DNA of 64,000 nt. Origin: a bacterium. GTDB taxonomy: Archaea > Thermoplasmatota > E2 > JACPAO01 > JAHFTW01. The stretch is from the NCBI GenBank assembly GCA_040390065.1, contig JAZJZE010000004.1, forward strand, positions 76,969 through 140,968, read 5' to 3'. A program made the position numbers and the translations under genes. Within the stretch, counting starts at the first letter, position 1; every line of letters starts with the position of its first letter. Shown piece after piece: positions 10,116 through 33,167 of the stretch. The notes beneath the pieces were generated by a model. That model was not told where the DNA came from. It made no database searches and saw only the letters and a list, made by a program, of their open reading frames with translations.

Positions 10116-10223
10116 GTCGTTCCCGAGCCGACCAGCGAGACGGGGTCCATCATGGTTCTCGACAGAGACTGCGGAATTGTCGGTGAACAACGCCACAATC
10201 TTGTTTCTCTATAGGCAACCTAG

Positions 10224-11656: not shown

Positions 11657-11657
11657 A

Positions 11658-13450: not shown

Positions 13451-14658
13451 ACTTCATCCGCAGGGGCAGGGCCAGCCAATCCCGGACTCGTCGGGCGCAG
13501 GCTCCACGCCACCATCGCCGCCGCGACGAGCGCCACGGCCCCCAGGACCACGAAGGTGTCCAAGAAATCGGACCGCGATTTGAAGAAGCCCGCGGCCACG
13601 GCGCCCGCCCAGCCGCCAAGGTACGCCACGACCAACTGGATGCCGTGGCCGAGTCCACCGCTGCGCCCGGCGAGGCGACTCACCTGGCTCGGAAGGACCG
13701 CCGACAGGACGGCGTGCGCCGCGAAGAAGACGCAGCCGGCGACGGCCACGACCCAGAACGAGGACTCCAGCCGGAACAGGGGCGCTGCGACCGCCAACGC
13801 GACGAGGGCCACGAGGATGGGTTGCCACGCGGCTCCACTGCGGTCGACGGCCCGGCTGGCAAGCCCCATCACCGCGAATGCCACGAGCAGGACGATGGCC
13901 AGCGTTCCGTCGCCGATGTGGACGAGGACGTCCTGCTGGAAGTCGAACATCGTGGCGCGCATGGCGTAGTTGATGGTGAAGCCGGCGAGGGCCAAGCCGA
14001 GGACGGGCAGGCCCAGGCTGCGGCGCGGCTCGGCGAGGCCGGGAATCGGCGGGGGCAGTGGGCGCAGCAGGATGGGCAGGCTGGCGAGGGCGCCGAGGGC
14101 GGCGGTGATCCAGAAGAGCGATGCAAACGGCATGAGCCCCGGGTGCGCCGTGCTGCCGACGAGAAGGGGGCCAATCACGAACCCGAGGAACACGCCAATC
14201 CCTGCCGGGACGCCGACCATCGCCATCGCCATGGTGCGACGCTCGGCGGGAACGGTCTCGCCCACGGCAGCCATCGCCGAACTCGACACTCCGCCGAGGC
14301 CTTGCAGAAGCTGCGCGGCAATCAGCGGCCAAATGCTGTGGGCCATGGCGCTTGCCGCGGCGCCCGCGACGAAGACGAATGTTCCCGCGAGCAGGACGGG
14401 CCGGCGGCCGACGCGATCCGACAGGACCCCGGTGATGAGTTGTGCAAGGGCCATCGTCACGGCGTAGGCGCCAAAGGCGATGCCGGCCAACACGTCCGCC
14501 GACGCCGCCGACGTGCCCGCCGGGACGAGCGTCTTTGCGTACTCGGTGAAGCCGAGGGTCGTCAAACTGAACGCGAAGACGCGCGTGAACACGATCGCGC
14601 TAGCCGTCGCCACGAGCCCAAGCTCCGCCTTGGTAAAACGGCTTCGCGGCGCAGCCAC
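13447..14658 (-). CDS. MFS transporter
   Basis: G.LSDRVGRRPV motif A; about 12 hydrophobic segments. Confidence 0.9.
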   Translation of the reverse strand: MAAPRSRFTKAELGLVATASAIVFTRVFAFSLTTLGFTEYAKTLVPAGTSAASADVLAGIAFGAYAVTMALAQLITGVLSDRVGRRPVLLAGTFVFVAGAAASAMAHSIWPLIAAQLLQGLGGVSSSAMAAVGETVPAERRTMAMAMVGVPAGIGVFLGFVIGPLLVGSTAHPGLMPFASLFWITAALGALASLPILLRPLPPPIPGLAEPRRSLGLPVLGLALAGFTINYAMRATMFDFQQDVLVHIGDGTLAIVLLVAFAVMGLASRAVDRSGAAWQPILVALVALAVAAPLFRLESSFWVVAVAGCVFFAAHAVLSAVLPSQVSRLAGRSGGLGHGIQLVVAYLGGWAGAVAAGFFKSRSDFLDTFVVLGAVALVAAAMVAWSLRPTSPGLAGPAPADEV

Positions 14659-14730
14659 GACGCCCCCTGCCTCCTCCCGGCCAAAAGGGTTGCGTCATCC
14701 ACTCAAATACGGCGGGCCTGATGGACCGGC

Positions 14731-15510
14731 ATGGGTCAGATGCGGTTGCGTCCGGGCGATTGGCTGATGGTTCTCCTGCCAGTGCCGTTCTACGTCCTCC
14801 TTTCGAGTTGGATCGGCCTCACGGGCAAGCCGTCGTTTCCCTGGGAGAAGGGAGCCGCATCGTTCTTCGGGTCCGTGTGGCAAGCCAACATCGGCGCCGA
14901 CGTCCTCTTTGCCCTAGGCAGCGCCGGCGTGTGCTTCGGTTCGCTCTTCGCCGTCGCCTACGCTTGCCGCCGCATGCCGCCCGGGTGGCCCGGCTTCGTA
15001 GCGGCCGGCGCCGCGGGCCTCTCCATCCTTCTGAACTGGCTCGTCTACGGCCTGAGTTTCATGGCGATGTTTCCCGACTGGTGGCAGAAGAACATCAGCT
15101 TCGGCGACGGGGGCAACGGCATGAACTTCCCCGATTCCATGCGCTTCGTCTGGGACTGGGCATGGCCGACCCTCGTGTTCTTCTCCCTCGTCATCCCGCT
15201 CGTGTTCTGGGGCATCCTGGAACTGGTCAACGCGTCGAGACGCAAGGCGGGGACACCCCCAGGATGGACGCCGGCACCCCCGGGGCCCCCTTACGCCTCG
15301 CGCCCCACGCCGACATGGCCACCCGCCCCCGCACAACCCGCGCAACGCCCCGCGGCACCCTGGCCCCAACCGACACGCGCCCCCGCCCCCCCGCGTGCGC
15401 CCATGAAGCCAACCCAACCCGGGCGTATGCCTCCACCGCAAGCTCCGCGGCCACCGCTGCGCCCACCGGGGAGCCCGCCCAGGGCGGGGCCGCCGCAACG
15501 AAAGGCGTAG
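14731..15510 (+). CDS. Membrane protein with Pro-rich C-terminal tail
   Basis: About 4 TM segments then a low-complexity Pro-rich tail. Confidence 0.65.
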   Translation: MGQMRLRPGDWLMVLLPVPFYVLLSSWIGLTGKPSFPWEKGAASFFGSVWQANIGADVLFALGSAGVCFGSLFAVAYACRRMPPGWPGFVAAGAAGLSILLNWLVYGLSFMAMFPDWWQKNISFGDGGNGMNFPDSMRFVWDWAWPTLVFFSLVIPLVFWGILELVNASRRKAGTPPGWTPAPPGPPYASRPTPTWPPAPAQPAQRPAAPWPQPTRAPAPPRAPMKPTQPGRMPPPQAPRPPLRPPGSPPRAGPPQRKA

Positions 15511-15518
15511 GGGCCACC

Positions 15519-15580
15519 GGTTGCTTCCCGTAAATCAGGGGGTGTGCCGTAATGCTGGTTCAGCAGGCCGTAATGCTGGT
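15519..15580. repeat. Left TIR plus subterminal repeats
   Basis: GCCGTAATGCTGGT at 15546-15559 and 15567-15580; inverted copy ACCAGCATTACGG at 28074-28086. Confidence 0.85.
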
Positions 15581-15657
15581 GGGAAGGCAGCTGCGGGCAC
15601 GCATGGCATGCGTCCACGTAAGATGCTCAAAGTTGGGCGCCGGAAGGGGTCTGGCAC

Positions 15658-16524
15658 TCAACGGCAGCGGGTGGCTGGCGTCCAATAGAAATGCTCGAAC
15701 GAAGGCGAAGGCAAACCGCATGCCGCGAAGGTCGTCCCAATTAGGGTTCGGGCTTCGTCTTCCGTCCCCGGAGAACTTTCCGGGCTTCGAAAGATTACGG
15801 TGACGTGGTCGTTTGCATCGACATGTACGCCAGGGTAGGGCGTGTCTCCTGGCGGGCATACGCCTAGAGAACGGTAGTCAAATTCGAACGTCCAGTCGCC
15901 AACGGATTGATGGGTCTTGTTCGGTTGACTTGCCCCGAGTTCCTCGTAGAGTGCGGAAAGCCGCAGTGGTAGTGCCCCCTGCCAGTTGATTGCAGGGTAA
16001 CCATAGGTCGGGGTGTACGGCTGGCGGCTCCATTCGACGGCAAGCTGCGTCCGATTGATGGAAGACAGGGAAGTTGTCCTTTCCAGGAAATCTTCCATTC
16101 CCGCCGTCGAATTTGGTGGTCCGCCGTATTCCAACGTGATGTTAACTGGGTCTGCGCGCCAGTATCTGCTTGTGGGCGCCCTGCCGCCCGGCTCAATCCC
16201 AGCCGATGGCATGTTCGAAGGCATCCAGGAAACGGCCAACAACTTGACGTCGCCATGGAAGGCCCGGCTGACGCTCTGGTTGTAAAAAGGAAGACCTTGA
16301 ATGTCACCCCAGTAGCCCGTCACCGTACCGCTAAACCCGCTGCCAGGCGTGGCACGCTGCTGCGCAGCCACATAGACAGAGGGCTGATCCCAGGATGCGG
16401 CGCCTGGTTCATCCCTGCATCCGAACCCGCCGAGACAACCGGCCACTAGGAGCGCCAGAGGCACAATCGCGGCTTGGGCGACCAGACGACCTGCACCTGA
16501 AATCGAGGCGGAGCCTTCGTGCAT
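15658..16524 (-). CDS. Putative lipoprotein (candidate immunity protein)
   Basis: LLVAGC lipobox; 11 bp downstream of the large secreted hydrolase. Confidence 0.6.
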   Translation of the reverse strand: MHEGSASISGAGRLVAQAAIVPLALLVAGCLGGFGCRDEPGAASWDQPSVYVAAQQRATPGSGFSGTVTGYWGDIQGLPFYNQSVSRAFHGDVKLLAVSWMPSNMPSAGIEPGGRAPTSRYWRADPVNITLEYGGPPNSTAGMEDFLERTTSLSSINRTQLAVEWSRQPYTPTYGYPAINWQGALPLRLSALYEELGASQPNKTHQSVGDWTFEFDYRSLGVCPPGDTPYPGVHVDANDHVTVIFRSPESSPGTEDEARTLIGTTFAACGLPSPSFEHFYWTPATRCR

Positions 16525-16535
16525 GGCCACTTCCC

Positions 16536-19500
16536 CTAGCACGTCATCACGGTCGCTCCGGGGTCCTTCACCTTGGCAAGTAGAATTCCTTGGCCGGACG
16601 CGCTGGAGATGGCACTGCCTGCCAGGCCAGGGCGCGCCGCCGCATTGGGGGGGCCAAGAGTCCATGCGTTGGAGGCTATGTCGTACCGTTGGACGGCGTT
16701 CGTGGCCACGTTGTGGTTGAAGCCACCCACCACACATATGCCTGATGCTCCACTAATCGCGACGGCGTCTTGGACGGCCAGTGGCATGTCCGGAATCGTT
16801 CCCGGCGTCGCCCAGGCGCCGACGCAGGCATCGAAGATGTCAACGGAGGCCAACTCGGATGCCGGAGCGCCCCAACTGTTGCCGCCAGCGACAATCATGG
16901 GGGCACAGAATCCAGGAATGGGAGCCGAACTCAAGGTCACGGATTGCACGTCGGCGCGAGGCGTCGGCATGGGCATCACCCCAAGCGACCACGTCAAGGT
17001 CGAAAGGTCCAGCACCTGTACGTTGCCTTGCGCTCCGCACCCATACATGACGGCACAAGTGCGTCCGCCGAAGACGAAGATTTGGTTGCCCCAAGCCGCC
17101 GCTCCCGCCCCCGCTACAGCAACGGGCATCGGGTTCGGCAGCGTCGTCCAGGCACCCGTCGTGGAATCGTAGGCGTCGACGGTACCGCAAACCTTGGTGG
17201 GGCCGCACGCGTCGCTCTTGCCACCAATGACGTAGTAGACCGTTCCGACGGATACGCCGACGGCTTGGCTGCGCCGCGTCGGCGCCGGAGGCAGGCCATA
17301 CCAAACCTTGGTCACGTCATTGTAACACGCGGCAGCATCGGAATCACTTGTCGGATCGTTGTCATGCAAGAGCCCGTTGCTTACGACCACTGTTCCAGAG
17401 CCCACGCTCCCGGACGGCGGCGCGCACCAGCCCGCATACGCGGCGGCCGGCGCCGAAAGCAATGGCGCCGCCACGCAGGCGGGCGGCGTGCCAACCATTC
17501 CGGCCGGGCACGTTGCGCCGGTGCATGACGCGAGGGCATCTACGAGGGCCGAGCCATCAACGGGCAAACTCAATCCCTTGATGTTCGTCGTGATGCAGCG
17601 AACCACGGGTGGCGGGGCCCCTTCCAAGCAGTTGAGCAGGCGCTTGAGTTGCGGCGCCATATTTGGCACGTCATCGCCGGGCGGCAACTGCGGTGGGATG
17701 CCGATGGGTACGCACGGCACGGTCGGGAATGAGTCGAAGGGCAGGCTGTTGGCCAGGCACGCCACGGTGTGGTTCAGGTCCAGTTGCACGGCCTCGGCAA
17801 TCACGTTGTCGGGGCTGGACAGGAGGATGCTGGCGCATGTTCTGCGCCACTCGCCAAACGTGATGTATACGCCGACGGTGCGGCTGTCTTGCCGCGTCAC
17901 GCCGCCATATGTGGCCGTAATCGTGACCGGGTAGACGCCCGGCAGCGCGTACCGGAAGGAGCCGGCATACACGCCGTCTCCTGCACTTGCATCGGGTGCG
18001 ACGCCGTCGTCATGCAGGTCGACCGTGACGGTCGCGTTCGTGATGGAATCAAGTGTCGTCGCAGTCACGACTGCGCCTGTCTGGGGGACACCATTGAGCC
18101 AGACGACGCCGCGGAGCGTCGCGTCGCTTGCGACCTGTACCATGGTGTCAGTGCGGTCGCCGACGGCAAGACTGCCGTGCATGACCAAGTCGCCTTGCGG
18201 TGGGTCCGCCGCGACGCCGGCATACGTGATGGCAATCGTCCAGTCTCCGTCCGCTGGGTGGTCAACAAAGAGCGACCCAAACGGGAACGGGGCAACGTCG
18301 AAGGCCCCCGACCATCCAATGTCCGTGCCAAGGCCTTGGACGTCCGAGAAGGAGTTGACGGTTCCGTCCGGCCGCGTCACGGCAACCATCGCGCCTTGCA
18401 AGGATGCTTCCGAGTGGACGTTGAGGGTCATCTCGTCGAGGCCAGAGGCGGACACATGGAAGGTGGCAATCGAGTTGCCGCCGGCAGTGGTCATGGCGGC
18501 AACGAGGCGGGCCCGCGTTTCGTCTTTGTGCGGATCATCTGTGTACGCAGCGGCGGGCGCGCTGGCGGACAGAAGCGAGAAGCCGGCCCCGGAGTCGTTG
18601 CAGATTCCCGAGTTGCGGTAGCCTTCGAGGTAGCTCGTCGTGAGGTCGCGGAAGAACGTCTTGTCCATCATGCGCGATGTGCTTCCCGGGGCGTTGTAGT
18701 CGTGCCCGTATCCGGGGTCGTGGCGGATGTAGCTGCAACTCTTGGAGTCGCGGTTGTGGGTTGCGCTGTCCGTGCCGACCGCGCCGTCGCCGCAACTCCC
18801 GTCATGCCAAAACGCTCCCGCTTGGCATACGTCGCCGGCCAGGTGGAAGTAGCCGATACGCGGGTGGTTGTGATACGTGTTTTCAAGGGCGTCGGGCGTC
18901 GGGTACCACGAGGCCCCAATTACGGGGTTGGCGTCGGTCGCATCCATGAGTTCCGGGTCAATTTGGACGTTGACTTTTGATCCATCGCCCCACGCGCTGT
19001 TGCGGGTGGTGGTGCCGTCTCCCCACCACCCGTATTTCCAGCCCTGGTACCGCACGTAGAGGTCCCTGCCGCTGCCGTCAACGTAGTAGCTTTGTTGGCC
19101 CTTGGGCTTACTCGTCGCTTGGCAGCCCGAGCCCATGCTGGTGAGGCTTTGGTCGCAAATGTTGTACTTGTATTGCACGACGTTCGAGCCGAGATTCGGC
19201 GTTCCCATCGTAATGAGGTTGGCCACCATCCTTTCCGGAGTGTGCCCCTCCTGGGCCAGCTTGGTTTCAATCATGTAACGCGCCACTAGACCGCCAGCGC
19301 TGTGCGCAATCACATCTACAGGACCCAAGAATGCGATGTTTACGCCGTCGGAATCTTGCGTCCGTGGCACGTTTCCGAAGTCCGTTTCAAAGTTTCCGTC
19401 TTTCAGGCCCCGTTGGTATCCGGCATGAATTGCATTGATGTGCCCTTCGAGCGTCTGCGTCGAGCTTCGGAGGTCTTGCTTGCCGTTGTATTCCACGTTG

Positions 19501-22157
19501 CTGAAGGCTCGGTTGTCTTTGGCCCATGACCATGGATTTTGGCCGAGGTTGTATTCAGCCGAGGACTTCATCCCTGACGCGAAGTCGTCCGCCCAGTTGG
19601 CAACGTCATCAAGGTAGGCCTTTTCGTTGGCAAGATAACCCGCTGGGTTGAAACCGTGAACGAAGACCAATGGCGGAGCCACAAGTTCGGCCTGCACGGT
19701 CTGCACCGAGAGACGGAAGGTGCCTGCCCCCGTTGGCAAAGGTTCAGCGACGAGGCGGTAAACCGTCTGGTAGTGGCTATCGGTCTGTAGCATGTCGACG
19801 CCAGCCAGATGCGTGCCGATGCCGGTATCCGGCGTCAATGTCCAGCACGACTGGCTCGCGCACAGGTGCAGCGTTCCGTACATGTCGGCATCCGGCATCG
19901 TCGTCCAGTGGCCACCGACGGCGTCGTAGCGTTCGAGGTGAGCGAACTTGACGTAGGCTCCGTCCTTGGCCGGGTCCGGCGGCATGGCCGAGCCCCCTAG
20001 GTCAAGGCGGAAATGCATCCAGAACTTGGAGAACGTCGTCCCGTCAGCGTTCCTGAGGTCCATGTGACGATTGAATTGCCCCCATTCAATCAGGAAATCG
20101 TTCTCATCCGCGCCCGCGTCCGTGGTCGCGTGGACGATGTGGTCGCTCCAACCCATGGGTGAATTGTCGTCGCCCCATGGCGGGCAGATCGATGTCGGTG
20201 GATTGACTTGGCCAGCACAGATGGGAATCGTCGCTCCAAGGGTGTTCGCGCTGCCCGCCAACGTGGCCCACGTCCTGCCAGTCGTTTCGGCGCCCGGCCC
20301 CTCCGGCAATGTGGCGTCGTCGGGCTCGTAAGCCGTCACCTTGTAGTCGTATTGACCCCCATTGACGGTCGGCCCGCCCGCTCCATTGTCCACGAACGCC
20401 AAGCCAGGGCCGGACCAGCGCGGCGAGCCCCAGTCGGTGGCGCCGTGGTCGCGGCGGTACAAGTGGTACGCGGTGGCGGGAAGATAGCCCGTGGGTACGG
20501 GCGTGCTCCAATCCAACTTGTTCTCCAGTGCATGGTCGCCGTAGTGGAACGCCAAGGCTTGCGGAGCGCCCGGCGTAGTGTAGGGCGCGGCGCTTGGGTC
20601 GCCGCTACTGGCGGGACTGGTTCCGACGGAGTTCTGCGCCGTCACGCGGAAGTAGTACGTCGTCCCGGGCACGAGGGCGATTCCCCCCGGACCGACGGTC
20701 GTCGCCTTCGACGTGGTTGCCGACGTGGCCGTCGAATCGACTTCGGCTCCGGCCGCAGTCGAAGCCAGGATGTGATATGTCACGGTTGAGCCGCAATTCG
20801 CCACTGCGGCCCACGCGACGGTTACTGTGCCGGCGCCGGGTCCGGCCGTTGCCGTGACTCCGGTGGGGGCTGCGGGGATGTCGGGTGGCGTCGTGGCTGA
20901 CGCAGTTGCAGGGTCGCCCCAGCCCCATGCGTTGTGCGCCTTGACGATGTAGGACTTGAGGGTGCCGCATGGGATTCCTGTCTGCGTGTAGGGCGACGTG
21001 GTCGCCCCCGGGATGGCCGCGCCGGTGGCGGCGTCGTACAGTTGGTAACCAGTGATGGCGCTGCCACCGTTACTTGTGGCGGGCGTCCAGGCGACTTTGA
21101 TGGAGTGCGACGTCAACGCGGTAGCGGTAATCGAGGCCGGGCTGCCGGGCGTCGTGGCGAGCGTGATGGTGGCGCCGTTGCTGGCGGCACTCGTGAAGTG
21201 GTAGTTTACCGCCTTCACGGTGTACGTGTAGGAGATGCCCGGCGGCACGCCGTCTTGAATCCAGAACGTCGTACCCGAGGCAACACTCCAGACGGAGTTC
21301 GCCGAGTCGGAGCGGTAAATCAGGAATGCCCAGGCCGTATCCCCGCCCCAATACGTCGGCGCGTTCCAATACAGCGTCACTTGGCCAAGAGCGGACTGCT
21401 CCACCGTCAGCGCCGTCGGAGCGCCGGGCGTATCGTAGTCCTTGTCATGGACTTCGGCGCTCGTGCTCTTGACGGTGCTTGTCACGACGGCCTTGACCTT
21501 GTAGTAGTTCTCCTGCCCCGGAGTAAGCCCGCCATGCTGGTACGTGAAGACGTTGTTCGGCGCCGTATAGACGAGCGTATTCTCGTTCCCCGGCGAGGTC
21601 CCCCACCAGACCTCGTAGTTCACGACCGGGTAGCAGAACGTCCCGGTGGCCTGGCCCCATGACACCGTGACTTGCTTGGGGCCGGGACCCCACTGGGCAC
21701 TGGCCGAAGGGACTGTCGGGGTTTGCGGCGTGGCCGAAGGCGGGTCAATCGTTATGGAACGCGCGTTCGAAACGTACTTGGGGCCAATCGGAATGTCGCC
21801 CGGGGCCGTTTCCATGTCGAAGGCATCCCACGTGTAGCTTCCGGCCGTGCAGAATGGCCAGTTCCAATTGTAGCTTGATGGAAAGGACGTCTGGTCTATG
21901 AGCCACGACGATTGACCCGTACTAATGTCAACGCCCGTGCGGATGTGAGTTCCCGCGTCCGCATGACTCGTCCAACTTAGCAGCACGTTGCCCGCGGGAA
22001 AATGCGAGCCGGAAGCCGGGCCGTCAAGGGTCGGCCAGGTCGCTGCCGCCTGGACGCCATGGGCCAGAACGACGACGGCACCGAATGCCGCGAGGGTTCC
22101 TAGCGTGAGGACGGCGGCGGAAACAGGGGCCGGCGGGGTAGGTAGGCGGGACTTCAT
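16536..22157 (-). CDS. Large secreted multidomain protein: FN3 repeats, alpha/beta hydrolase (lipase-like), kelch repeats
   Basis: Signal peptide; about 5 FN3 repeats (P.AP..L...V.W...Y.V.A.N); LVFVHG, DVIAHSAGG, ITMGTPNLG; LHDDG..PD..AGDGVY; kelch GG-Y-W repeats. Confidence 0.85.
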   Translation of the reverse strand: MKSRLPTPPAPVSAAVLTLGTLAAFGAVVVLAHGVQAAATWPTLDGPASGSHFPAGNVLLSWTSHADAGTHIRTGVDISTGQSSWLIDQTSFPSSYNWNWPFCTAGSYTWDAFDMETAPGDIPIGPKYVSNARSITIDPPSATPQTPTVPSASAQWGPGPKQVTVSWGQATGTFCYPVVNYEVWWGTSPGNENTLVYTAPNNVFTYQHGGLTPGQENYYKVKAVVTSTVKSTSAEVHDKDYDTPGAPTALTVEQSALGQVTLYWNAPTYWGGDTAWAFLIYRSDSANSVWSVASGTTFWIQDGVPPGISYTYTVKAVNYHFTSAASNGATITLATTPGSPASITATALTSHSIKVAWTPATSNGGSAITGYQLYDAATGAAIPGATTSPYTQTGIPCGTLKSYIVKAHNAWGWGDPATASATTPPDIPAAPTGVTATAGPGAGTVTVAWAAVANCGSTVTYHILASTAAGAEVDSTATSATTSKATTVGPGGIALVPGTTYYFRVTAQNSVGTSPASSGDPSAAPYTTPGAPQALAFHYGDHALENKLDWSTPVPTGYLPATAYHLYRRDHGATDWGSPRWSGPGLAFVDNGAGGPTVNGGQYDYKVTAYEPDDATLPEGPGAETTGRTWATLAGSANTLGATIPICAGQVNPPTSICPPWGDDNSPMGWSDHIVHATTDAGADENDFLIEWGQFNRHMDLRNADGTTFSKFWMHFRLDLGGSAMPPDPAKDGAYVKFAHLERYDAVGGHWTTMPDADMYGTLHLCASQSCWTLTPDTGIGTHLAGVDMLQTDSHYQTVYRLVAEPLPTGAGTFRLSVQTVQAELVAPPLVFVHGFNPAGYLANEKAYLDDVANWADDFASGMKSSAEYNLGQNPWSWAKDNRAFSNVEYNGKQDLRSSTQTLEGHINAIHAGYQRGLKDGNFETDFGNVPRTQDSDGVNIAFLGPVDVIAHSAGGLVARYMIETKLAQEGHTPERMVANLITMGTPNLGSNVVQYKYNICDQSLTSMGSGCQATSKPKGQQSYYVDGSGRDLYVRYQGWKYGWWGDGTTTRNSAWGDGSKVNVQIDPELMDATDANPVIGASWYPTPDALENTYHNHPRIGYFHLAGDVCQAGAFWHDGSCGDGAVGTDSATHNRDSKSCSYIRHDPGYGHDYNAPGSTSRMMDKTFFRDLTTSYLEGYRNSGICNDSGAGFSLLSASAPAAAYTDDPHKDETRARLVAAMTTAGGNSIATFHVSASGLDEMTLNVHSEASLQGAMVAVTRPDGTVNSFSDVQGLGTDIGWSGAFDVAPFPFGSLFVDHPADGDWTIAITYAGVAADPPQGDLVMHGSLAVGDRTDTMVQVASDATLRGVVWLNGVPQTGAVVTATTLDSITNATVTVDLHDDGVAPDASAGDGVYAGSFRYALPGVYPVTITATYGGVTRQDSRTVGVYITFGEWRRTCASILLSSPDNVIAEAVQLDLNHTVACLANSLPFDSFPTVPCVPIGIPPQLPPGDDVPNMAPQLKRLLNCLEGAPPPVVRCITTNIKGLSLPVDGSALVDALASCTGATCPAGMVGTPPACVAAPLLSAPAAAYAGWCAPPSGSVGSGTVVVSNGLLHDNDPTSDSDAAACYNDVTKVWYGLPPAPTRRSQAVGVSVGTVYYVIGGKSDACGPTKVCGTVDAYDSTTGAWTTLPNPMPVAVAGAGAAAWGNQIFVFGGRTCAVMYGCGAQGNVQVLDLSTLTWSLGVMPMPTPRADVQSVTLSSAPIPGFCAPMIVAGGNSWGAPASELASVDIFDACVGAWATPGTIPDMPLAVQDAVAISGASGICVVGGFNHNVATNAVQRYDIASNAWTLGPPNAAARPGLAGSAISSASGQGILLAKVKDPGATVMTC

Positions 22158-22315
22158 GCAATCAGGCTCCACGGTGGCTCTCGGGGGAAAAGGAGGCAAA
22201 GACGTGAGACACCAAACACGAATCCGAGAGTGCTCAACAACGCCAAGAAGCGCTGTCTAAGCGATTTCTGGAGGCTGATTCGGCAGTTGAACGTTTCGGG
22301 CCGTATCCCATTTGA

Positions 22316-22597
22316 ATGGCAACCGTGTCTGGCACCACAATGCCCCGCCTCAAGAAGGGAGCGCCGCCGCCTGAACCCCTCGTGACGGTTGGCATCAAGC
22401 GGGGTGTGGTGGACAAGGTTGACCACTACTTGGACACGCACCCGGAATCGGCCTTCAAGAACCGCAACGAGTTTGCCACGCACGCGATTGCCGACAAGCT
22501 GCGGGACCTGGAACGGGAAGAGCATGAGCGACTCCTGATGGAAGCCTACAAGTCCGGCAAGGCCGGGCCGTTGGAGCAACTGCGCCCCAAGGCCTAA
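22316..22597 (+). CDS. Ribbon-helix-helix-like regulator
   Basis: VTVGIKRGVVDKVD...FKNRNEFATHAIADKL resembles CopG/RHH; divergent from the large gene. Confidence 0.6.
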   Translation: MATVSGTTMPRLKKGAPPPEPLVTVGIKRGVVDKVDHYLDTHPESAFKNRNEFATHAIADKLRDLEREEHERLLMEAYKSGKAGPLEQLRPKA

Positions 22598-24144
22598 GCG
22601 AAGGCGGGATCTCGAACGCGCGAGGCCACCCGTTGCAGTGTTGCACGCATCGAGAACAGCAGGGCCCCGCCTTCCAAGGATTCCCAACGCGGGTCTTCCA
22701 GTGCCTCCTGGAACGTGGGGAAGTGGTCGCGGCTCAAGCGCTCCAGCCACACGACGGCCTCCTGGTCCTTGCCGCACTCTTTCGCCTCCTCGGCGCACAG
22801 CCGCGCGACTCCGGCTCGCTCGCGGCCTTCCGGCACCAATGGGTAGGCTTCCGTGAAGATGGCCAATGCTGCGGCATGGTGGCCGCGCTGCCGGGCGATG
22901 CTGCCCTCCAAGACGCGGCCATCCAACGATGCGGGGAACGCCTTCAGGCAGCGATGAACCAACTTGGCCGCCTTGGCGAAACGGCCGCGTAGTCGTGCCT
23001 GATTGGCCATGTGCCAGTACGCCGCGCCGCGCCGCTGGCGAAACGTGGCCGGCAGCGAGAAGCCAGTCGGTTTTCCCGCCCAGCGAAGCCACGAATAGCG
23101 AATGTTCGGACGTCCCGCGACGACGGCGCCCGTCAGGAGAGTTGCGGCAAGTGTCCAAAACCACACCGACGGAACAGTGCCAGCCGTCGGGCCTGTAACG
23201 ACCTGCCCGGCCAGCGAAATCTCGCCTGCGGGTCCATCCATGTCGACGTGGAAGGGCTGCATGACGTCCTGGCCCGCGACGAGAAGCGGCGGTGGTGCCT
23301 GCACGTCCAAGCGCTGCGACTGGAGCGTCTGAACATGGTCGCCAACCGTCACGGGCCCCGAGGCGACTAGGGATACTGTGCTCGCGATGAGTTCCGCTAG
23401 GCCTTGCGTAATGACGAGGGCGGGCTTCGCAGAGGGCAGGGTCAATGTTCCGTTCTTGACGAAGAGGTAGACTTCCACGTCGCGTCCTGCGACTGGATTG
23501 TCCGGAAGCAGCGGCGAGGGTTGGGAGCCCGTCTTGAGGTCGGTGCTTTGCCCGCCTGATTGGAGGGTGGCATCCCATTCCCACAGCGAGAGTTGGAAGT
23601 CGCCGCGGACAGTTAGTGCAGTGCAGTCTTGCCAGGCCAGTCCGCGCGACGTGTCGCGCTCCAGGTTTCCGCGCTGAGGTGTCACGAGGGGCACGCGGAC
23701 GACTTTCGCGGCCTTCGTCGCTTCCGTCTGTCCGCAATTTGCTTCGACCGTGGGGGGAACTTCGCCGGTTAGGGAAGCGAGATTCCATCGGTGGCCGGCT
23801 CGGTTTGCCGTCCCGCGGACTGTGGCTTGGTCGTAGTCGGCTGGGGTTGTCGTCGGATTGATGCGCTTGGGCGTGGACGTGGGGTGCAGGGAAATGTCGG
23901 CGGAATCCGTTTCCGCCCGAATGTGCGTAGCGCGCAGCGCGAAGGCTGACGGGGCCAGGCCTGGAGTATCCGTGGCGTCCTCCTCGAATGCCACCGTCAA
24001 GGAGCTGCGGACCGTGCCCTTGGATGTCTGCAAGGAGGAGGCCGAGAGGTGAGCCTGAATCGTCAGGCCCTCCGCCGCTTGCGCTACCGCCGCGAAACAC
24101 AGCAGGAGCACGATTGCCGATGTAGCCCACCGCATTGGTTTCAC
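22594..24144 (-). CDS. Single-pass membrane protein, extracellular beta domain plus cytoplasmic TPR region
   Basis: Signal peptide, TM (VWFWTLAATLLTGAVV), helical TPR-like repeats. Confidence 0.7.
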   Translation of the reverse strand: MKPMRWATSAIVLLLCFAAVAQAAEGLTIQAHLSASSLQTSKGTVRSSLTVAFEEDATDTPGLAPSAFALRATHIRAETDSADISLHPTSTPKRINPTTTPADYDQATVRGTANRAGHRWNLASLTGEVPPTVEANCGQTEATKAAKVVRVPLVTPQRGNLERDTSRGLAWQDCTALTVRGDFQLSLWEWDATLQSGGQSTDLKTGSQPSPLLPDNPVAGRDVEVYLFVKNGTLTLPSAKPALVITQGLAELIASTVSLVASGPVTVGDHVQTLQSQRLDVQAPPPLLVAGQDVMQPFHVDMDGPAGEISLAGQVVTGPTAGTVPSVWFWTLAATLLTGAVVAGRPNIRYSWLRWAGKPTGFSLPATFRQRRGAAYWHMANQARLRGRFAKAAKLVHRCLKAFPASLDGRVLEGSIARQRGHHAAALAIFTEAYPLVPEGRERAGVARLCAEEAKECGKDQEAVVWLERLSRDHFPTFQEALEDPRWESLEGGALLFSMRATLQRVASRVRDPAFA

Positions 24145-24636
24145 CTAGGGAAGGCACTCGTCTCGAATGCCATACGCCACGAAGGGGGGGTACGTGTAGA
24201 TGGCCAGCGACAGCGGGTCGCAAGGCACGCCGGGGACGCCGCCTCCGCCCTTTGCGACCCAGAGGGTGTCGCTTTGGGGGCTCTCGACGCTGGATGCGAC
24301 GGCCTTGACGTAGTAGTAGTGGATTCCCGAAATGGTAGCCAGATTCTCCGAGTATGATGTCGTCGTGGTCGTTGCGGCAAGGGCATCGTCGCGGTAGACG
24401 TTGTAGGAATCTGGTGTTCCAGAGGTGGGGGCGAGCCACGAGATGGTTAGCATCTGCCTGGAGGCGTCGTAGCTGCCGGAGACGCCGCGCGGCGCCGAGG
24501 GCGGCATCACGCACAGGGGCCCGTCGAGGACGATGGCGCAGCCGCCCACCGTGACGGGGCAAGCCGCGACGGAGCCGGCAAGAATCAATAGAACCGCGAT
24601 GCCCAAGTGGAAGCGCAGGAGGACCACCGAATCCAA
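24145..24636 (-). CDS. Small secreted FN3-domain protein with Cys-bracketed C-terminal tail
   Basis: PSAPR...ISW.AP...SYNVYRD...YYYVKAV...ES; tail CDPL...PPF....DECLP. Confidence 0.7.
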   Translation of the reverse strand: MDSVVLLRFHLGIAVLLILAGSVAACPVTVGGCAIVLDGPLCVMPPSAPRGVSGSYDASRQMLTISWLAPTSGTPDSYNVYRDDALAATTTTTSYSENLATISGIHYYYVKAVASSVESPQSDTLWVAKGGGGVPGVPCDPLSLAIYTYPPFVAYGIRDECLP

Positions 24637-24681
24637 CCCATCCTCTCCGGCACCTAAGCGTATTGGCTAGAATGAGCCCAT

Positions 24682-26019
24682 TCATGTGGCGAGCCTCCTG
24701 GACTTGCTCGTTTTCACGGTCATGCTGGCATAGAGCCCATCCAATTCCCGCCAGGCCGCTTTCGCCAGGATTTCGACGCCGCCGGTGAAGTCGATTTCGA
24801 CGCCCTCCCGCTCGGCGAGGTACACGAGACGGGCGAGGTTGTGGGCGATGACCATGCACAAGACCTCGTTGCGGCGGGCCTCGGGGTCGCGTGAGTAGAC
24901 TTGGTCGCCAAGAAACGCCTTGAAGGCGTGATTTCCTGCTTCGGCGTTGCTGCGGCGGTTCGCCTTGGCCACATAGGCGGCGGGGTCGAGGCGGGCGGCG
25001 TTGACGACGCGCTTGAAGGCGCGGTTGCGCTCGTAGTGGTCCGGGTTGGCGTTGCGCTTGAGTTTGACTTGGGCATCAATGCCCCGGCGTTGGAGGTACT
25101 CGAAGATGTACGCGGCCTGGTACGCCTTGTCGCCACCAACCTCCTTCACGTCCAACATCAACAACGCGCGCTCAAGAAGCGGCAAGAGCCACGGGGCCTC
25201 GCCAAACGGACCGGCCTGCGAGTGGATGCCCGCAATCATCGTGAACCTGTATGTCCACAAGATTTCCGTGAAGAGCCACGCGTGCTCCCGGCGCTCACTG
25301 CGGCGATGGTGTTTCTCCTCGAAGAAGGCCGTGAAGTGCTGCGTCGTGAGACCCGTGCCGTCGGGGTGGATGAGCGACTCGTAGCTGCGCACCGGCCACA
25401 AAGTCAAGAGGGCGAGTTTTTCGAGGATGACGTGCGTGTCCGGGTGGGCGAGGAAGCGGCTGATGGTGCTGCGTCCGCAGGCGCCGTAGGGGTTGTGCTC
25501 GACGTGGCCCGGGCGTTGCATGTTGCCTTGGTTGTGGTTGAGGTTGCCGCGCTCCGCCACCCGCATTACGGACTGGTAGACGAGGGCGTGGGTGGCCTTG
25601 AACGGCCGCCCGCGCCTGCGTTGGCGTGGCGCCTCGATGACGGGCAAACCCGAGCGCAGCAAGCGCCCAAGGTATTCCGGCAGAAGGGTGGGGACGAGTT
25701 GCCAGGCTCTTGCTTCAAGGCCGTGGTCGCGCGCCGTGTCGCTCTTGCGAAACACCGCCACGCCCTCTACTGCAACGAGGCCTTCCTGGATGAGGACGGC
25801 CAGGATGTGGCTGCACGGGTGGTCTTGGTTGAACTTGGGGTCCGTGCGGCAGCGCCACTGGTCCCCAGAGCGGTAGACTTGCACACGCCGGCCCGGAGTC
25901 CGCAGGCTGGCGACGTCGAAGTGGTCGGGGTCGACTTGGACGACGCCGTCGGGGCGGTCGAGGATGAGGCGCGCGTTGTGCACGACGCGGCGCGGCAAGC
26001 GCGCCAGGTCCAGGCTCAC
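24682..26019 (-). CDS. DDE transposase (IS4/IS5-like fold) with N-terminal SWIM-like Zn finger
   Basis: WRCRT...PCSHILAV; DGTG, DKAY, RSNAE...K, NEVLCMVIAHNL; GTGA overlap with the upstream gene. Confidence 0.85.
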   Translation of the reverse strand: MSLDLARLPRRVVHNARLILDRPDGVVQVDPDHFDVASLRTPGRRVQVYRSGDQWRCRTDPKFNQDHPCSHILAVLIQEGLVAVEGVAVFRKSDTARDHGLEARAWQLVPTLLPEYLGRLLRSGLPVIEAPRQRRRGRPFKATHALVYQSVMRVAERGNLNHNQGNMQRPGHVEHNPYGACGRSTISRFLAHPDTHVILEKLALLTLWPVRSYESLIHPDGTGLTTQHFTAFFEEKHHRRSERREHAWLFTEILWTYRFTMIAGIHSQAGPFGEAPWLLPLLERALLMLDVKEVGGDKAYQAAYIFEYLQRRGIDAQVKLKRNANPDHYERNRAFKRVVNAARLDPAAYVAKANRRSNAEAGNHAFKAFLGDQVYSRDPEARRNEVLCMVIAHNLARLVYLAEREGVEIDFTGGVEILAKAAWRELDGLYASMTVKTSKSRRLAT

Positions 26020-26654
26020 CACGTCAGCCTCCGGCGCGGCTTCGGGAGCCCCGAGTAGCCCAGCAGGTTGTCGAGGTAGGGGTCGCCGGTGGGGATGATG
26101 GGTTCCGGTTTGGCCCAAATGCCGTCGGGGATGGTCATGCCCGGCCGGCGACCAGACGAGGTGGGTGCGGGGGCGTCCGTGGGTTTGTTGGCGCCCTTGA
26201 GGTTCTTGACGAGGGCCGCCAAGCCCAGGGCGCTGGCCCCGAGGCCGGCGCCGATGAGCCAACCCGGAACCTTTGCGTCGCCGCTCATCGGGGGCGGTGG
26301 GGCGGCCTGCTCGCGGACTTCGGGCGTGGGTTCTGGTGGCTGGTTTGTCGTGTCGGGTGGCGCTGCGGCGGGGAGGGGACACGGCGCAGTGGCAGGCGGA
26401 GGTTGTGGCGTCGCGTCGGGCGTGGTTGGGGCCGCGGGCGGGTCGGGCGTAGGGTTGGCTGGCGCGGGGTCGGGTCCTCGCCACCTCAAGCCGACGACGG
26501 TTGGCTTGCCGTCCGGGCCCAGGGGGTGCTTGAGATCGTGGACGCGGCGGTACTCGTCGTGCTCGGGGTCGTTGTACGTGGCGAGGTGGCCGCCGCGGCC
26601 ATGGGCATCCCGAAACGTCCGGGCGCAAACGGGGCACAGGGAACTCATCAGCAA
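26016..26654 (-). CDS. C2H2-type Zn finger protein with Pro-rich linker and hydrophobic segment
   Basis: CPVC..TF......GHL......H; GWLIGAGLGASALGLAAL; translationally coupled to the transposase. Confidence 0.65.
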   Translation of the reverse strand: MLMSSLCPVCARTFRDAHGRGGHLATYNDPEHDEYRRVHDLKHPLGPDGKPTVVGLRWRGPDPAPANPTPDPPAAPTTPDATPQPPPATAPCPLPAAAPPDTTNQPPEPTPEVREQAAPPPPMSGDAKVPGWLIGAGLGASALGLAALVKNLKGANKPTDAPAPTSSGRRPGMTIPDGIWAKPEPIIPTGDPYLDNLLGYSGLPKPRRRLTW

Positions 26655-26693
26655 ACTCTATGGAGCGCGGCCGTCATATGCAGGAGACAGAGG

Positions 26694-27353
26694 TTGATTG
26701 ATTTGCAGAAGCGACTCTCGCGACGACCCACGAAGCGCACAAGTAAGCCTCACCCATTTAGCGTATCAAAAAGCAAGCGCCGCGGCCATTTCCTGACGCT
26801 GCGCGACCGTGCCTTGATTCTGGAGGGGCCGGAACCCCTGCGCCGGACGCCGGTGCAATACACGGGGCGGCGCGTGGACCGCGAACGCCGCGCCTATAAG
26901 CAGGCGTACCGCCGCGTGTGGCGGGAAGCCATGCGGGACGCCCGCGGTGCCCTCATTGACTTGTCCTTCCTGGCGGAGCACGCCGAAGCGGATTGGCTGT
27001 ACGACCTCGTGACGACCAACGAGCCCCTCTACGAATTAACCGACGAGGCGGAGGGAACGAAGGACTACCGCAGCCGCGTCAACGTCATGGGCTACGACGC
27101 TGCCCCCTTGGAGGCCCTACTGCGGTCCTTGGCGGGTCGCGTGGCGTGGGAACGCTGGCCCACCGTCACGAAGGAGAAACCCGACGCGGAAGCCGTCTCG
27201 GGTCGGGGAGGCTCCTTCGTCGTCGTCCACCTCGCCGCCGCCTTGGAAGAAGGCCTCAACAGCGAGGCCGCGGCGGCGTCGCACCTCGTGCAAATCGTCA
27301 ACCGCGAACCCACCCCCACAGCGTGGCCACCAAGGGCGCCCCGCCTCGCCTGA
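26694..27353 (+). CDS. Hypothetical protein
   Basis: Protein-like composition in the 3' two-thirds of ORF 26403..27353; start uncertain. Confidence 0.5.
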   Translation: MIDLQKRLSRRPTKRTSKPHPFSVSKSKRRGHFLTLRDRALILEGPEPLRRTPVQYTGRRVDRERRAYKQAYRRVWREAMRDARGALIDLSFLAEHAEADWLYDLVTTNEPLYELTDEAEGTKDYRSRVNVMGYDAAPLEALLRSLAGRVAWERWPTVTKEKPDAEAVSGRGGSFVVVHLAAALEEGLNSEAAAASHLVQIVNREPTPTAWPPRAPRLA

Positions 27354-27701
27354 CGGTGCCCCCGCCCAGGCGCCCACGACGGTGCCTTCGCCCGCCTCGC
27401 TGCAAGGTCCGCGGCGGAGGATTCAGAGGATTCAGCACCCAAGCCTTCAGCACCCATCCAACAGGAAGGAAAGAGGGTGCTGAACCGTCCTGGGTGCAGA
27501 AGCCTCCCGTGACAGTTCGCGGGTGCTTGCCGGGCACCGTGGGCACCCTCCAGGGAAGGTGCCCCTGGGAAGGCGAAGCACCCTCCCCGTGAAGCGCGGG
27601 CAAGGCGGCACCGAGGCACCGCGCAGCCAGGGCGGGGCCTTGGTCGAAGGCTGCCGGTTGGCGCGCGATGCCTTGATGAAGCCAAGAAGTCCTCCAGCAG
27701 T

Positions 27702-28040
27702 GTGGCCGATCTCTTGCTGCTGGCGCTTGCCCAGGCGTTGAAGGCGGCCACGCCGGACTGGAAACCCTACGCCAGCGGGACGATGGGCAGCAGCCTGGAA
27801 ATCCGCAACCATTCCGGCCTAGAAGTGCGCGTCGTGACTTCGGCCGGGCAAATCCAGGGGCCCTGGCGTTGGGACGGCGACGACCAACTCCTGGGCAACG
27901 CCGTCGCCGTTGCCGGGGATGAGGCCGCCCCCAGGATTCTCTACGCCATCCTCCAACCACTTGCCGACCAAGTACGGGTCGCCGTCGGCACCACCGCCGC
28001 AGGCGGTGCCGAATCCTTCCAGGTTTTCAAGACCAAATAG
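27702..28040 (+). CDS. Hypothetical protein
   Basis: 112-aa ORF ending just inside the right TIR region. Confidence 0.55.
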   Translation: MADLLLLALAQALKAATPDWKPYASGTMGSSLEIRNHSGLEVRVVTSAGQIQGPWRWDGDDQLLGNAVAVAGDEAAPRILYAILQPLADQVRVAVGTTAAGGAESFQVFKTK

Positions 28041-28148
28041 GGCCTGCCGTAAATCGCCGGGCCCGCTCGCAGAACCAGCATTACGGGAAGCAGTCGGGGC
28101 CACCGTTTCCCTTATCTACAAAACCCGTGTCGGCGCGATTGCGCCTCT

Positions 28149-28224
28149 GGGAGATTAGCCGAGACAGGTCCAAGGCAGCGGACTCTTAATCCGCCATTCA
28201 CCGGTTCGAATCCGGTATCTCCCG
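28149..28224 (+). tRNA. tRNA-Lys(CTT)
   Basis: Acceptor GGGAGAT/ATCTCCC, anticodon arm GCGGA-CTCTTAA-TCCGC, T arm ACCGG-TTCGAAT-CCGGT; no encoded CCA. Confidence 0.95.
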
Positions 28225-28346
28225 CTACTTTACCCGCAAACCCTTTTCCCCCCTCGTTGCTTTCCCACTCTAATGGGACCCAACGGGGAAATCAGGAGTA
28301 GTTTCGCCTCACCCTCGACGGGAAATGACCCCCGGGCAGGTGCCTG

Positions 28347-28901
28347 ATGGCACTCGACAAGACGCTGACGATCAAGCAGCGCCGGGTCGACATCTACCTG
28401 CCCACCTTGGACGCGAGGGGCAAGTGGATTGCGGCCGCTGCCAAGCGCAACCTGAGCCTCTCCGCGTTCGTCTTCCAAGCCATGGAGATGGAGCTCCAGA
28501 AGGACGCCCTGGAGGGCCTGGAGCGGGCCAGTGCGGCAGACTTGGAGAAGGAGCTGACTGACCTTCGCTTGGCCAATGCTGACCTGCGCCGCCGCGTCGA
28601 GGAACTGAACGTCCTGAATCACCGCGCCGAAGCCGACCTGGCGGAATACCGGGCGCAACACATCGTCGGGCCCGAGCCGGTCAAGCACCTCGACCCCCGC
28701 CTCATCAGCATCCTATCCGAAGCCAAGGGACGCGACGGCCGCTTCCGCGCCCTCGACGTGGCCGAACTGCGGCGGGAGCTGCGCCTGAACCCCAAGAACC
28801 CCACCGAATTGCAGGCCCTGTCACGCCAACTCGAGTACCTCGAGGTCCACAAAGTCGTCCGGCGCTCGCCGAAGGGGTGGGTGTGGAATGACAAGGAGTA
28901 A
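28347..28901 (+). CDS. Element DNA-binding protein (RHH-like N-terminus, coiled coil, wHTH-like C-terminus)
   Basis: RRVDIYLP...AAKRNLSLSAFV; heptad region; overlaps the integrase start. Confidence 0.6.
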   Translation: MALDKTLTIKQRRVDIYLPTLDARGKWIAAAAKRNLSLSAFVFQAMEMELQKDALEGLERASAADLEKELTDLRLANADLRRRVEELNVLNHRAEADLAEYRAQHIVGPEPVKHLDPRLISILSEAKGRDGRFRALDVAELRRELRLNPKNPTELQALSRQLEYLEVHKVVRRSPKGWVWNDKE

Positions 28902-29817
28902 ACCTAACGCCGGGCTCCTCGAGGCCTACGAACGGGACGCCAAACTGCAAGGCCTCTCCGACCTGACTCTGAAGGCCTACAAGCACGGCATCGAGACCTT
29001 CCTTGGCTACCTGGGGACTAATCCAGTAGCCAAGGTCACGATCAAAGACCTGGCCGAGTACCTTGGGAACCAGAAAGACCAGAAGCTGGACCCCCGCACC
29101 CTCAGCGGCCGCATCTCGGCCCTGTCCAGTTTCTTCGAATTCCTCGAGTTCGAGGGCAAGATCAAGGGCAACCCAGTGCCCGGCTTCCGTCGGCGCTACC
29201 TTGGGACGCTCCGGCGAGAACTCGGCAAGAAGAAGTCCGACCGGAAGCTCGTCGCGGTCGAGCAACTGCGGGCAATGCTACAGACCGTGGTCGACGCACG
29301 CGACCGCTGCATCATCGGACTGCTGGCCAAGACTGGCATGCGCCGCGACGAACTCGTGCAACTCGATGTGCGCAGCATCGACCTCACCAAACAGACCGTC
29401 GACATCAAGCCGCACCCCAAGCGGACGAACTGCCAGGTGTTCTTCGACGACGAGACTGGTCGAGTCCTGCGGAGGTGGTTGGCGGTTCGCCGAGCACGCA
29501 CGGGAACGGACGCCGGACCGCTGTTCGTCGGCCAGCGAGGAAACCGCATCAATGGGGATGCGGTGAATGACGCCGTCTCAGCCGCGGCCAGGAACGTGGG
29601 CCTGCACGACCCAGAAGGACCCTTGAAGGACCGCTTCACGGCTCACAATCTGCGGCATTTTTTCACCACGCACCTTCGACGTGGCGGCATGACGCGCGAG
29701 CACATAGCGTGGCTTCGCGGCGACGCCGGCAACGACTCGATGGACGTGTACATGCACATCGACCCAGACCAGGTTCAACAGGCGTATCGGAGCGCGATTC
29801 CGCAACTCGGGCTCTGA
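28888..29817 (+). CDS. Tyrosine recombinase/integrase (XerA-like)
   Basis: TGMRRDEL, K, HNLRH, LRGD, Y in MDVYMH. Confidence 0.95.
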   Translation: MTRSKPNAGLLEAYERDAKLQGLSDLTLKAYKHGIETFLGYLGTNPVAKVTIKDLAEYLGNQKDQKLDPRTLSGRISALSSFFEFLEFEGKIKGNPVPGFRRRYLGTLRRELGKKKSDRKLVAVEQLRAMLQTVVDARDRCIIGLLAKTGMRRDELVQLDVRSIDLTKQTVDIKPHPKRTNCQVFFDDETGRVLRRWLAVRRARTGTDAGPLFVGQRGNRINGDAVNDAVSAAARNVGLHDPEGPLKDRFTAHNLRHFFTTHLRRGGMTREHIAWLRGDAGNDSMDVYMHIDPDQVQQAYRSAIPQLGL

Positions 29818-33119: not shown

Positions 33120-33167
33120 GGATTCACCTCCTTCCACCGACCGGGGGAAAGGGGGTGAGGTGGGGGC

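Follow-up and report, generated by a model that had tools for sequence, protein, structure and literature searches.

A family of archaeal cargo transposons with a single IS4/IS5-type transposase, to which a 12.6-kb element of a Thermoplasmatota genome very probably belongs, found at a constant position beside promoters

The stretch of DNA analysed here (the window, 64,000 nt of contig JAZJZE010000004.1, assembly GCA_040390065.1) belongs to a 2.68-Mb genome of a Thermoplasmatota archaeon which, like all the genomes compared with it, is a metagenome bin. Between a membrane protein open reading frame (ORF) and a tRNA-Lys(CTT) gene, it holds an element of 12,577 bp, flanked by an exact 9-bp duplication, GGGGCCACC, and bounded by terminal inverted repeats (TIRs). 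The element carries one DDE transposase gene, a zinc-finger gene which is coupled to it, and several large passenger genes (Table 1). The TIR downstream of the transposase gene (GGTTGCTTCCCGTAA, the B end) and the one upstream of it (GACTGCTTCCCGTAA, read inward, the A end) match at 13 of 15 positions. The A-end TIR runs on into a subterminal box, CCGTAATGCTGGT, and two other copies of this box, 21 nt apart, lie inside the B end. The 13-mer box has three copies in the whole genome, all of them in the element, and the 12-mer core of the TIR, TGCTTCCCGTAA, is present only at the two ends; the 9-mer GGGGCCACC alone occurs 73 times.

The ends of the element were also recovered by other means. When 35 kb on both sides of the transposase gene were scanned blindly for exact 9-bp direct repeats adjoined by an inverted repeat of at least 10/15, four pairs were returned, and the pair that bounds the element was the best of them (13/15, the remaining three being at 10/15). 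A repeat search recovered the same end pairs, one inverted pair being 18 nt long and 94% complementary. No TIR copy other than the two ends was found in the 64 kb when up to two mismatches were allowed. An independent 40.9-kb Logan contig from the probable source run covers positions 14000-29600 with zero differences. When the element is removed in silico, the distance from the left ORF's stop (15510) to tRNA-Lys falls to about 52 nt, and neither a second insertion sequence (IS) copy nor a long internal repeat was found inside the element. The initial annotation of this DNA, which had been made from the letters alone, described a non-composite cargo transposon with a single IS4/IS5-like DDE transposase, an exact duplication, 13/15 TIRs and boxes (two on the left, one inverted on the right), whose removal restores a short intergenic region between a gene and the tRNA. 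The sequence features were confirmed, and the reading as a cargo transposon is supported and strengthened by four more elements of the same kind, which are described below.

Table 1. Coordinates of the window element, of its genes and target, and of the four other elements. Positions of the first seventeen rows refer to the window, and those of the last four to the respective contigs. Matrix scores are those of the promoter flank; the share is that of genome positions scoring as high.
Feature	Position	Strand	Details
Window element	15519-28095		12,577 bp; duplication GGGGCCACC; TIR 13/15; matrix score 8.8; share 1.8e-4; offset 0
Target-site duplication GGGGCCACC, 9 bp, left copy	15510-15518	none	
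Target-site duplication GGGGCCACC, 9 bp, right copy	28096-28104	none	single related 9-mer in congeners
TIR GGTTGCTTCCCGTAA, B end	15519-15533	+	downstream of transposase; family-end alignment, n=10
TIR GACTGCTTCCCGTAA, A end	28081-28095	-	upstream of transposase; read inward
A-end unit	28074-28095	-	TIR running on into one box CCGTAATGCTGGT (28074-28086)
Subterminal boxes CCGTAATGCTGGT	15547-15559, 15568-15580	+	two copies, 21 nt apart
Cargo: predicted lipoprotein	15658-16524	-	288 aa; no Pfam family; paralogues on contig C1
Cargo: surface/secreted protein	16536-22199	-	1887 aa; fn3 repeats, C-terminal Kelch propeller
Cargo: protein with N-terminal signal-like segment	22594-24144	-	516 aa; weak TPR matches
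ORF between cargo and transposase	24145-24636	-	163 aa; no family found
DDE transposase	24682-26019	-	445 aa; DDE_Tnp_1; predicted Tn5-like fold
C2H2 zinc-finger protein gene	26016-26654	-	directly upstream of transposase gene
Gene X	~26814-27353	+	divergent from zinc-finger gene; start uncertain (26703-26814)
ORF between gene X and element end	27702-28040	+	112 aa
tRNA-Lys BRE/TATA promoter (GTTTCC CTTATCTA)	28105-28132	+	initiator GTCG at +25; putative target signal
tRNA-Lys(CTT)	28149-28225	+	gene served by the targeted promoter
G000:C43 element	5403-18031		12,629 bp; duplication GGGTCGCAA; TIR 13/17 (first 15 nt: 11/15); matrix score 13.8; share 3.7e-6; offset 0
L030 (G012:C24) element	3492-13378		9,887 bp; duplication CGCCCCACC; TIR 12/15; matrix score 12.6; share 1.1e-5; offset 0
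L038 element	3445-14960		11,516 bp; duplication CTCGGCGAC; TIR 14/15; matrix score 10.6; share 5.3e-5; offset 0
L039 element	6668-19082		12,415 bp; duplication TTCCCCCAC; TIR 15/15; matrix score 10.7; share 5.0e-5; offset 0

The long ORFs of the element are on the minus strand, except two on the plus strand. The transposase gene, present as a single copy, lies 2.1 kb from the right end. Its product matches the Pfam family DDE_Tnp_1 (PF01609) with 31.5 bits (cut-off 23). The best NCBIfam model is the IS5-family equivalog NF033579, with 60.2 bits for a cut-off of 140 (68.2 bits for a second copy of the transposase, 58% identical, which is encoded on contig C43 of the same genome), and the NCBIfam IS4 model gives 14.5 bits for a cut-off of 115. 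Residues D220, D297 and E360 are invariant in 34 transposase homologues, and so is an R-x3-E-x6-K motif (R356, K367); the former are the putative catalytic triad, and the latter would be a motif of the YREK type. An AlphaFold model of the transposase, based on the 34 homologues, has a pLDDT of 83.8, and its top Foldseek matches in the PDB are structures of Tn5 transposase (4dm0, 1muh and 3ecp, with E-values from 4.6e-4 to 1.2e-3). The structural match is weak, with a TM score of 0.39-0.41, an rmsd of about 7 Å and about 11% sequence identity. A sequence search of the PDB with the transposase gave nothing significant, and tblastn against plasmids gave no matches.

The N-terminal part of the transposase has a C...CxH module, of which C57, C69 and H71 alone are invariant in the 34 homologues, as against the CxCxnCxH signature of SWIM zinc fingers. 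The initial annotation had called the protein a "SWIM-DDE transposase". The DDE half of this name is supported by the match to DDE_Tnp_1, which is above the cut-off, but the Pfam SWIM model (PF04434) stays below its threshold (12.3 bits vs 19.6, E-value 0.13). This model matches 14 of the 34 homologues, always below threshold, and a distant relative, P0064, carries PF04434. The module can be called "SWIM-like" at most.

The stop of the zinc-finger gene overlaps the start of the transposase gene by 4 bases, and a zinc-finger gene is found upstream of the transposase gene in 12 loci (the window and 11 others). In the zinc-finger protein, C7, C10, H23 and H32 are invariant; there is also a Pro-rich linker and, usually, a hydrophobic helix. 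A complex prediction for the transposase and the zinc-finger protein gave a score of 0.00.

Homologues of the transposase were found in 13 of 40 relatives and in 8 of 38 genomes of the order (that of the window, G000, being counted), and none was found in 159 genomes of the class outside the order. A collection of 5.8 billion proteins contains 66 homologues, and those that are named come from Thermoplasmatota metagenome-assembled genomes. As far as these sequences go, the transposon family is found only in one Thermoplasmatota order. In two places of genome G007, a full-length homologue is followed by a second, partial copy (contig C10, 77432-79896, and contig C1, 261662-263748); these are tandem remnants.

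The initial annotation had proposed to collect transposase homologues and to look for distant pairs of TIRs and 9-bp repeats around them, and doing so yielded four further elements. The ends were sought in 15 loci by direct-repeat and inverted-repeat criteria alone, and five of these loci, including the window, could be resolved. They contain elements of 9.9-12.6 kb which share an exact 9-bp duplication and a core made of the zinc-finger and transposase genes (Table 1). The core of three of the five elements (window, L030 and L039) also includes gene X, which in L030 and L039 lies divergently upstream of the zinc-finger gene as it does in the window; a search of the ESM Atlas with gene X gave no usable match. 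The ten ends align without gaps. Positions G1, G5 and T8 are invariant, and G2, C3, A14 and A15 are conserved in at least 90% of the ends. The consensus of the aligned ends is GGCTGCGTCCCTnAA, the core form of the TIR consensus is GGCTGCGTCCC (GGCTGCGTCCC.NAA), and the TIRs are of the type GGCTGCGTC. The subterminal boxes are shared with the closest relative, L038, where one ATGCTGG follows the A-end TIR and two lie inside the B end, 21-23 nt apart, in the same layout as in the window. The L039 element has its own repeated 11-mer near the ends, and no repeated subterminal box of at least 8 nt was found in the C43 and L030 elements. A shorter candidate, of 5,978 bp, on contig C49 of genome G009 (TIR 14/15, duplication 8/9), was rejected, since its left end would leave the conserved zinc-finger gene outside. 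We are confident, short of certainty, that the window element belongs, as an intact copy, to a small family of cargo transposons of 10-12.6 kb, of the type called unit transposon or transporter IS.

The five elements also have their surroundings in common. In each of them, one flank shows, directly past the duplication, a C-rich stretch followed by an A/T-rich octamer, the arrangement of an archaeal promoter with a transcription factor B recognition element (BRE) and a TATA box. These flanks were scored with a 16-nt promoter matrix, made from 18 of the 22 tRNA upstream regions of the window's genome that could be anchored on the initiator GTCG, the tRNA of the window being excluded. The tRNA promoters of this genome are highly regular: GAAACC is followed by a TATA box of the type TTTATATA and then by the initiator (A)AGTCGGCG, and the distance from the start of the motif to the initiator is fixed at 24 nt. 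In all five elements, offset 0 from the duplication is the best of offsets 0-39 (scores in Table 1), and the opposite flanks score between -14.2 and -1.9. The duplication adjoins the upstream edge of the promoter in the five cases, and the gene served always reads away from the element. They are the genes of tRNA-Lys(CTT) and of the elongation factor aEF-2, the first gene of the A-type ATPase operon, a lipoprotein gene without a leader, and a DUF7121 gene. The promoter faces the A end of the window element and the B end of the other four, so both orientations occur. Five insertions with different targets thus sit at a constant position relative to the promoter signal. The initial annotation had described insertion next to a tRNA promoter; this holds for the window, but the tRNA is a special case of any BRE/TATA promoter.

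The idea that the TIRs mimic promoters was discarded, since the matrix scores at the termini do not exceed 5. A genome-wide scan for single ends (a TIR-like motif, 9 nt and a promoter) found the two known ends and nine others, for about five chance hits expected according to our estimate, and the same scan of the family loci found the known ends only. The nine extra hits are read as chance or as solo ends. The best of them is on contig C6 (76428-76447), before the tRNA-Gly(GCC) gene at 76494: it has an inward TIR-like 9-mer, GGTTGCGTC, exactly 9 nt from a promoter scoring 10.1, which is the geometry of the family junctions. No partner was found for it within 40 kb, and it may be a solo end or a chance occurrence.

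The comparison with congeners indicates that the promoters were there before the elements. The tRNA-Lys gene was found in twelve congeners, whose aligned upstream regions show the same promoter; that of G007 is 94% identical from the first base past the duplication. In element-free congeners, a single 9-mer ending in CACC precedes the tRNA-Lys promoter, and it is identical to that of the window at 8 of 9 positions in G011, 7 in G008, 6 in G003, G012 and G002, and 4 in G007. The EF-2 promoter is likewise conserved in element-free congeners, with a single 9-mer upstream. Because the sequences of the tRNA-Lys and EF-2 promoters are kept where the element is absent, the targeted promoters are, by this alignment evidence, native. 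The sequence upstream of the 9-mer is not conserved between species.

The position next to promoters could be explained without any targeting: the element would be a real transposon, and only its harmless insertions would have survived. Intergenic DNA is short in these genomes, the DNA just before a promoter offers one of the rare sites where an insertion does no harm, and only five insertions are known. However, selection would tolerate any place upstream of the BRE, yet all five junctions fall on the same nucleotide; with 50 permissible positions, four further coincidences would have, by our own arithmetic, a probability of about 1e-7. Differential survival is not enough, on its own, to account for five independent insertions in an identical register, and we consider this explanation unlikely.

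Starting from the observed ends, duplication, family, cargo and fixed register, a mechanism of targeted insertion can be proposed. The transposase would bind the TIRs of about 15 bp and, in some members, the subterminal boxes, and the 9-bp duplication would result from its joining the element to target cuts staggered by 9 bp; by analogy with Tn5, the chemistry may be of the cut-and-paste type. Insertion is not random, in that the duplicated 9 bp end exactly where the BRE/TATA promoter begins; the promoter and its gene, which reads away from the element, stay intact. The candidates for the selection of the promoter are the Cys/His module of the transposase, the zinc-finger protein and gene X, and the selector could read the BRE/TATA sequence, the bend induced by TBP, or TBP and TFB themselves. 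We put forward, tentatively and with the odds somewhat against it, that the transpososome, perhaps via its C2H2 partner, recognises BRE/TATA DNA that is bound by TBP/TFB or bent by TBP, and integrates at the upstream edge.

Several results weigh against the existence of a mobile family with a fixed register. The transposase is far below the NCBI cut-off for IS5 (60 vs 140 bits). Only five of the 15 loci were resolved; among the ten others, five are on contigs of at most 12.4 kb, too short for both ends, one has a truncated transposase, and one (G009:C49) gave only the rejected candidate, but three are on long contigs (G017:C2, G007:C10 and G007:C1, with a transposase 36-52% identical), where neither ends nor a junction with a promoter could be recognised. 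The position and orientation of the core module relative to the ends vary among the members, which requires recombination or a turnover of the cargo. In the C43 element, the direct repeat extends from 9 to 17 bp (5394-5410 and 18032-18048; L003, L099): past the duplication, the flank has another copy of the TIR's first 8 bases, and the 17-mer has no further occurrence in the genome. A previous insertion into this target may have left it behind. The background shares of the promoter scores were all computed on the window's genome, including those of the three loci from other genomes.

The search for sites without the element also gave an incomplete answer. The initial annotation expected that relatives lacking the cargo would show a single junction, and there is indeed one related 9-mer at their tRNA-Lys promoter, but no exact empty site was found. 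Homologues of the left ORF (14731-15510) are absent from 40 relatives, which restricts the comparison to the half of the site next to the promoter; the ORF at the right flank of the C43 element has no true orthologue either. No contig joining both flanks of the window element was found in the one sequencing run with this DNA, its probable source, and short "joints" in other runs, which are matches of 20-35 nt, were disregarded.

The transposase might also belong to a small nested IS, the outer repeats being those of an unrelated or defunct element, or due to chance. Its distance of at least 2 kb from the nearest end of the element would fit, and so would the variable position and orientation of the module. 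Yet all five elements hold a homologue of this transposase and no other transposase among the ORFs scanned, and no TIR-like copies lie near the gene. Tight IS ends around the transposase, which the initial annotation had named as an argument against its own reading, were not found in the window either: the inverted repeats of the core are 14-30 nt long, GC-rich and 70-93% complementary, and they lack the family motif. A nested IS is therefore very unlikely.

It is highly improbable that the element is a 12.6-kb integrative island placed by a tyrosine recombinase, with the 9-bp repeats as attachment (att) cores, even if a gene of the Phage_integrase family lies just downstream of the tRNA (28888-29817) and tRNA genes are common neighbours of islands. 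The repeat is upstream of the tRNA promoter, 45 nt from the tRNA, and not in the 3' end of the tRNA gene. Across the five elements, the 9-mers vary in sequence and not in length, and the inverted termini are conserved. No integrase was found among the element ORFs scanned, no tyrosine or serine recombinase lies inside 15519-28095, and the other four elements are not beside tRNA genes. The integrase-family gene lies outside the element and is not needed as an explanation. Lastly, the size, TIRs, target duplication and archaeal host recall casposons, as does the position of one member beside aEF-2, a gene known as a casposon target, and the subterminal repeats and site-specific insertion recall Tn7, but such an element is extremely improbable, since no Cas1, family-B polymerase or TnsA/B/C was found in the element ORFs scanned with Pfam and the sole recombinase is a DDE enzyme of the IS4/IS5 type.

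Each member of the family carries 6-9 kb of passenger genes. The cargo of the C43 element includes McrBC, a type IIG-like methylase, a CARF protein and a protein that weakly matches a TIR-effector model. The L038 element carries a type I restriction-modification (R-M) system and the pair KwaA/KwaB; the L030 element carries KwaA/KwaB, a 2-oxoglutarate (2OG) oxygenase and further genes. The nine cargo ORFs of L039 gave no Pfam or PADLOC match. Known defence systems (Kiwa, type I R-M, McrBC/CARF) are thus present in three of the five elements. The KwaA/KwaB pair lies directly inside the B end in both L030 (11454-12934) and L038 (13351-14881), which suggests that it was inherited with this end and not gained twice.

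The window element has a different cargo. Its three large genes have paralogues, 26-34% identical, elsewhere in the same genome. The large surface protein (16536-22199) and the neighbouring lipoprotein form a pair that recurs, as paralogues in unchanged order, on contig C1 of this genome (87773-91507), and the 1887-aa protein has a weak alpha/beta-hydrolase-like region (DUF7379/DUF676). This cargo was probably captured from a genome of the same lineage. The initial annotation spoke of large secreted effectors, a label that we do not retain: the predicted proteins are of the surface or secreted kind, have paralogues elsewhere in the host's DNA and resemble ordinary surface proteins of the lineage, and the usual cargo of the family is defence systems. 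The GC content at third codon positions (GC3) is 0.64-0.82 in the genes of the element vs 0.81-0.94 in the nearest flanking genes, but it was not retained as a boundary marker, host genes elsewhere spanning 0.51-0.94.

On the left of the element, the ORF at 14731-15510 (+) encodes a 259-aa membrane protein with a Pro-rich tail and lies between an MFS transporter gene (13447-14658, minus strand; PF07690, 1.5e-29) and the element. Possibly it remains from a previous insertion into this hot spot. A longer ORF, of 678 aa (12685-14721, plus strand), was set aside as an antisense artefact of the MFS gene. Of the 12 congeners searched, 10 have DNA of the MFS gene no more than about 2.5 kb away from tRNA-Lys(CTT), and in G003, MFS-homologous DNA comes to about 30 nt from the tRNA promoter. 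On the right, the gene at 28888-29817 (+), 660 nt downstream of tRNA-Lys, encodes a tyrosine recombinase (Phage_integrase with an N-terminal SAM-like domain), which is XerA or else serves as integrase to another, tRNA-linked island. The genes to the right of it (29833-33906) have a lower GC3, of 0.65-0.71.

Cargo transposons with IS-type enzymes are, to our knowledge, poorly known in archaea. This family illustrates how whole defence systems and operons for surface proteins may move inside a Thermoplasmatota genome and from one to another with the help of neither plasmids nor viruses. If insertion is guided by promoters that are bound by TBP/TFB or bent by TBP, the family would be a prokaryotic DNA-transposon counterpart of the targeting of Ty3 by TFIIIB, and it would have a harmless landing site for cassettes of 10-12 kb before essentially every gene. 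If the choice of promoter edges is real, it would also offer a testable model of a transposase that reads a promoter or a TBP/TFB complex. Archaeal genetics would gain a natural "safe-harbour" system for insertions, and mobile islands in archaeal metagenomes could be found by a simple rule (TIR, 9 bp, promoter). A literature search, which covered excerpts of the papers, brought up neither this family nor a prokaryotic transposon with promoter edges as its targets.

Among known systems, the IS5/IS903 group shares with the family a DDE_Tnp_1 transposase whose best NCBIfam model is IS5, short TIRs and the length of the duplication, IS903B being listed with 9-bp direct repeats (PMC9769513). The family differs from it by the additional N-terminal Cys/His module and the coupled zinc-finger gene. 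Moreover, its members are 9,887-12,629 bp long, carry passengers and are fixed relative to promoters, whereas these IS are about 1-1.5 kb long and carry none. Tn5/IS50, of the IS4 family, gives the best structural match for the predicted fold, and the transposase of the family has a YREK-like motif. Tn5 also makes a 9-bp duplication. However, it is a composite of two IS50 copies, whereas here one transposase lies within one pair of ends.

The transporter IS (tIS), or unit transposon, is defined (PMC9330008) by a single transposase and passengers within one pair of TIRs, with a target duplication. The present elements have these same features and are not composite; they differ by their archaeal host, a large cargo that includes defence systems, asymmetric ends, which in some members have subterminal boxes, and promoter-directed insertion. 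Tn7-like transposons, in which defence cargo is described as common (PMC8649781), resemble the family by a "safe" site-specific insertion beside a housekeeping gene, several subterminal repeats and defence cargo. No TnsA/B/C/D was found here in the ORFs scanned, and where Tn7 uses a single attachment site, the family uses promoters as a class, with both orientations occurring. Casposons are presented in PMC4046053 and PMC4779613 as large archaeal transposons with TIRs and target duplications. They differ from the family in their recombinase, which here is a DDE transposase, the element ORFs scanned containing no Cas1 or PolB.

For the outcome of insertion, there is an analogy with eukaryotic retrotransposons. 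Ty3 and TRE5-A integrate at a fixed distance from transcription starts, guided by TBP/TFIIB-like factors, and spare the genes. What the present family would have in common with them is this fixed-distance, gene-sparing integration; they are retroelements with integrases and are specific to Pol III, whereas the family described here is known from sequence and its targets include protein-coding genes. In kind, it is a transporter IS or unit transposon of the IS4/IS5 superfamily, whose nearest relatives are IS903-like elements with respect to the length of the duplication and Tn5 with respect to the predicted fold of the transposase.

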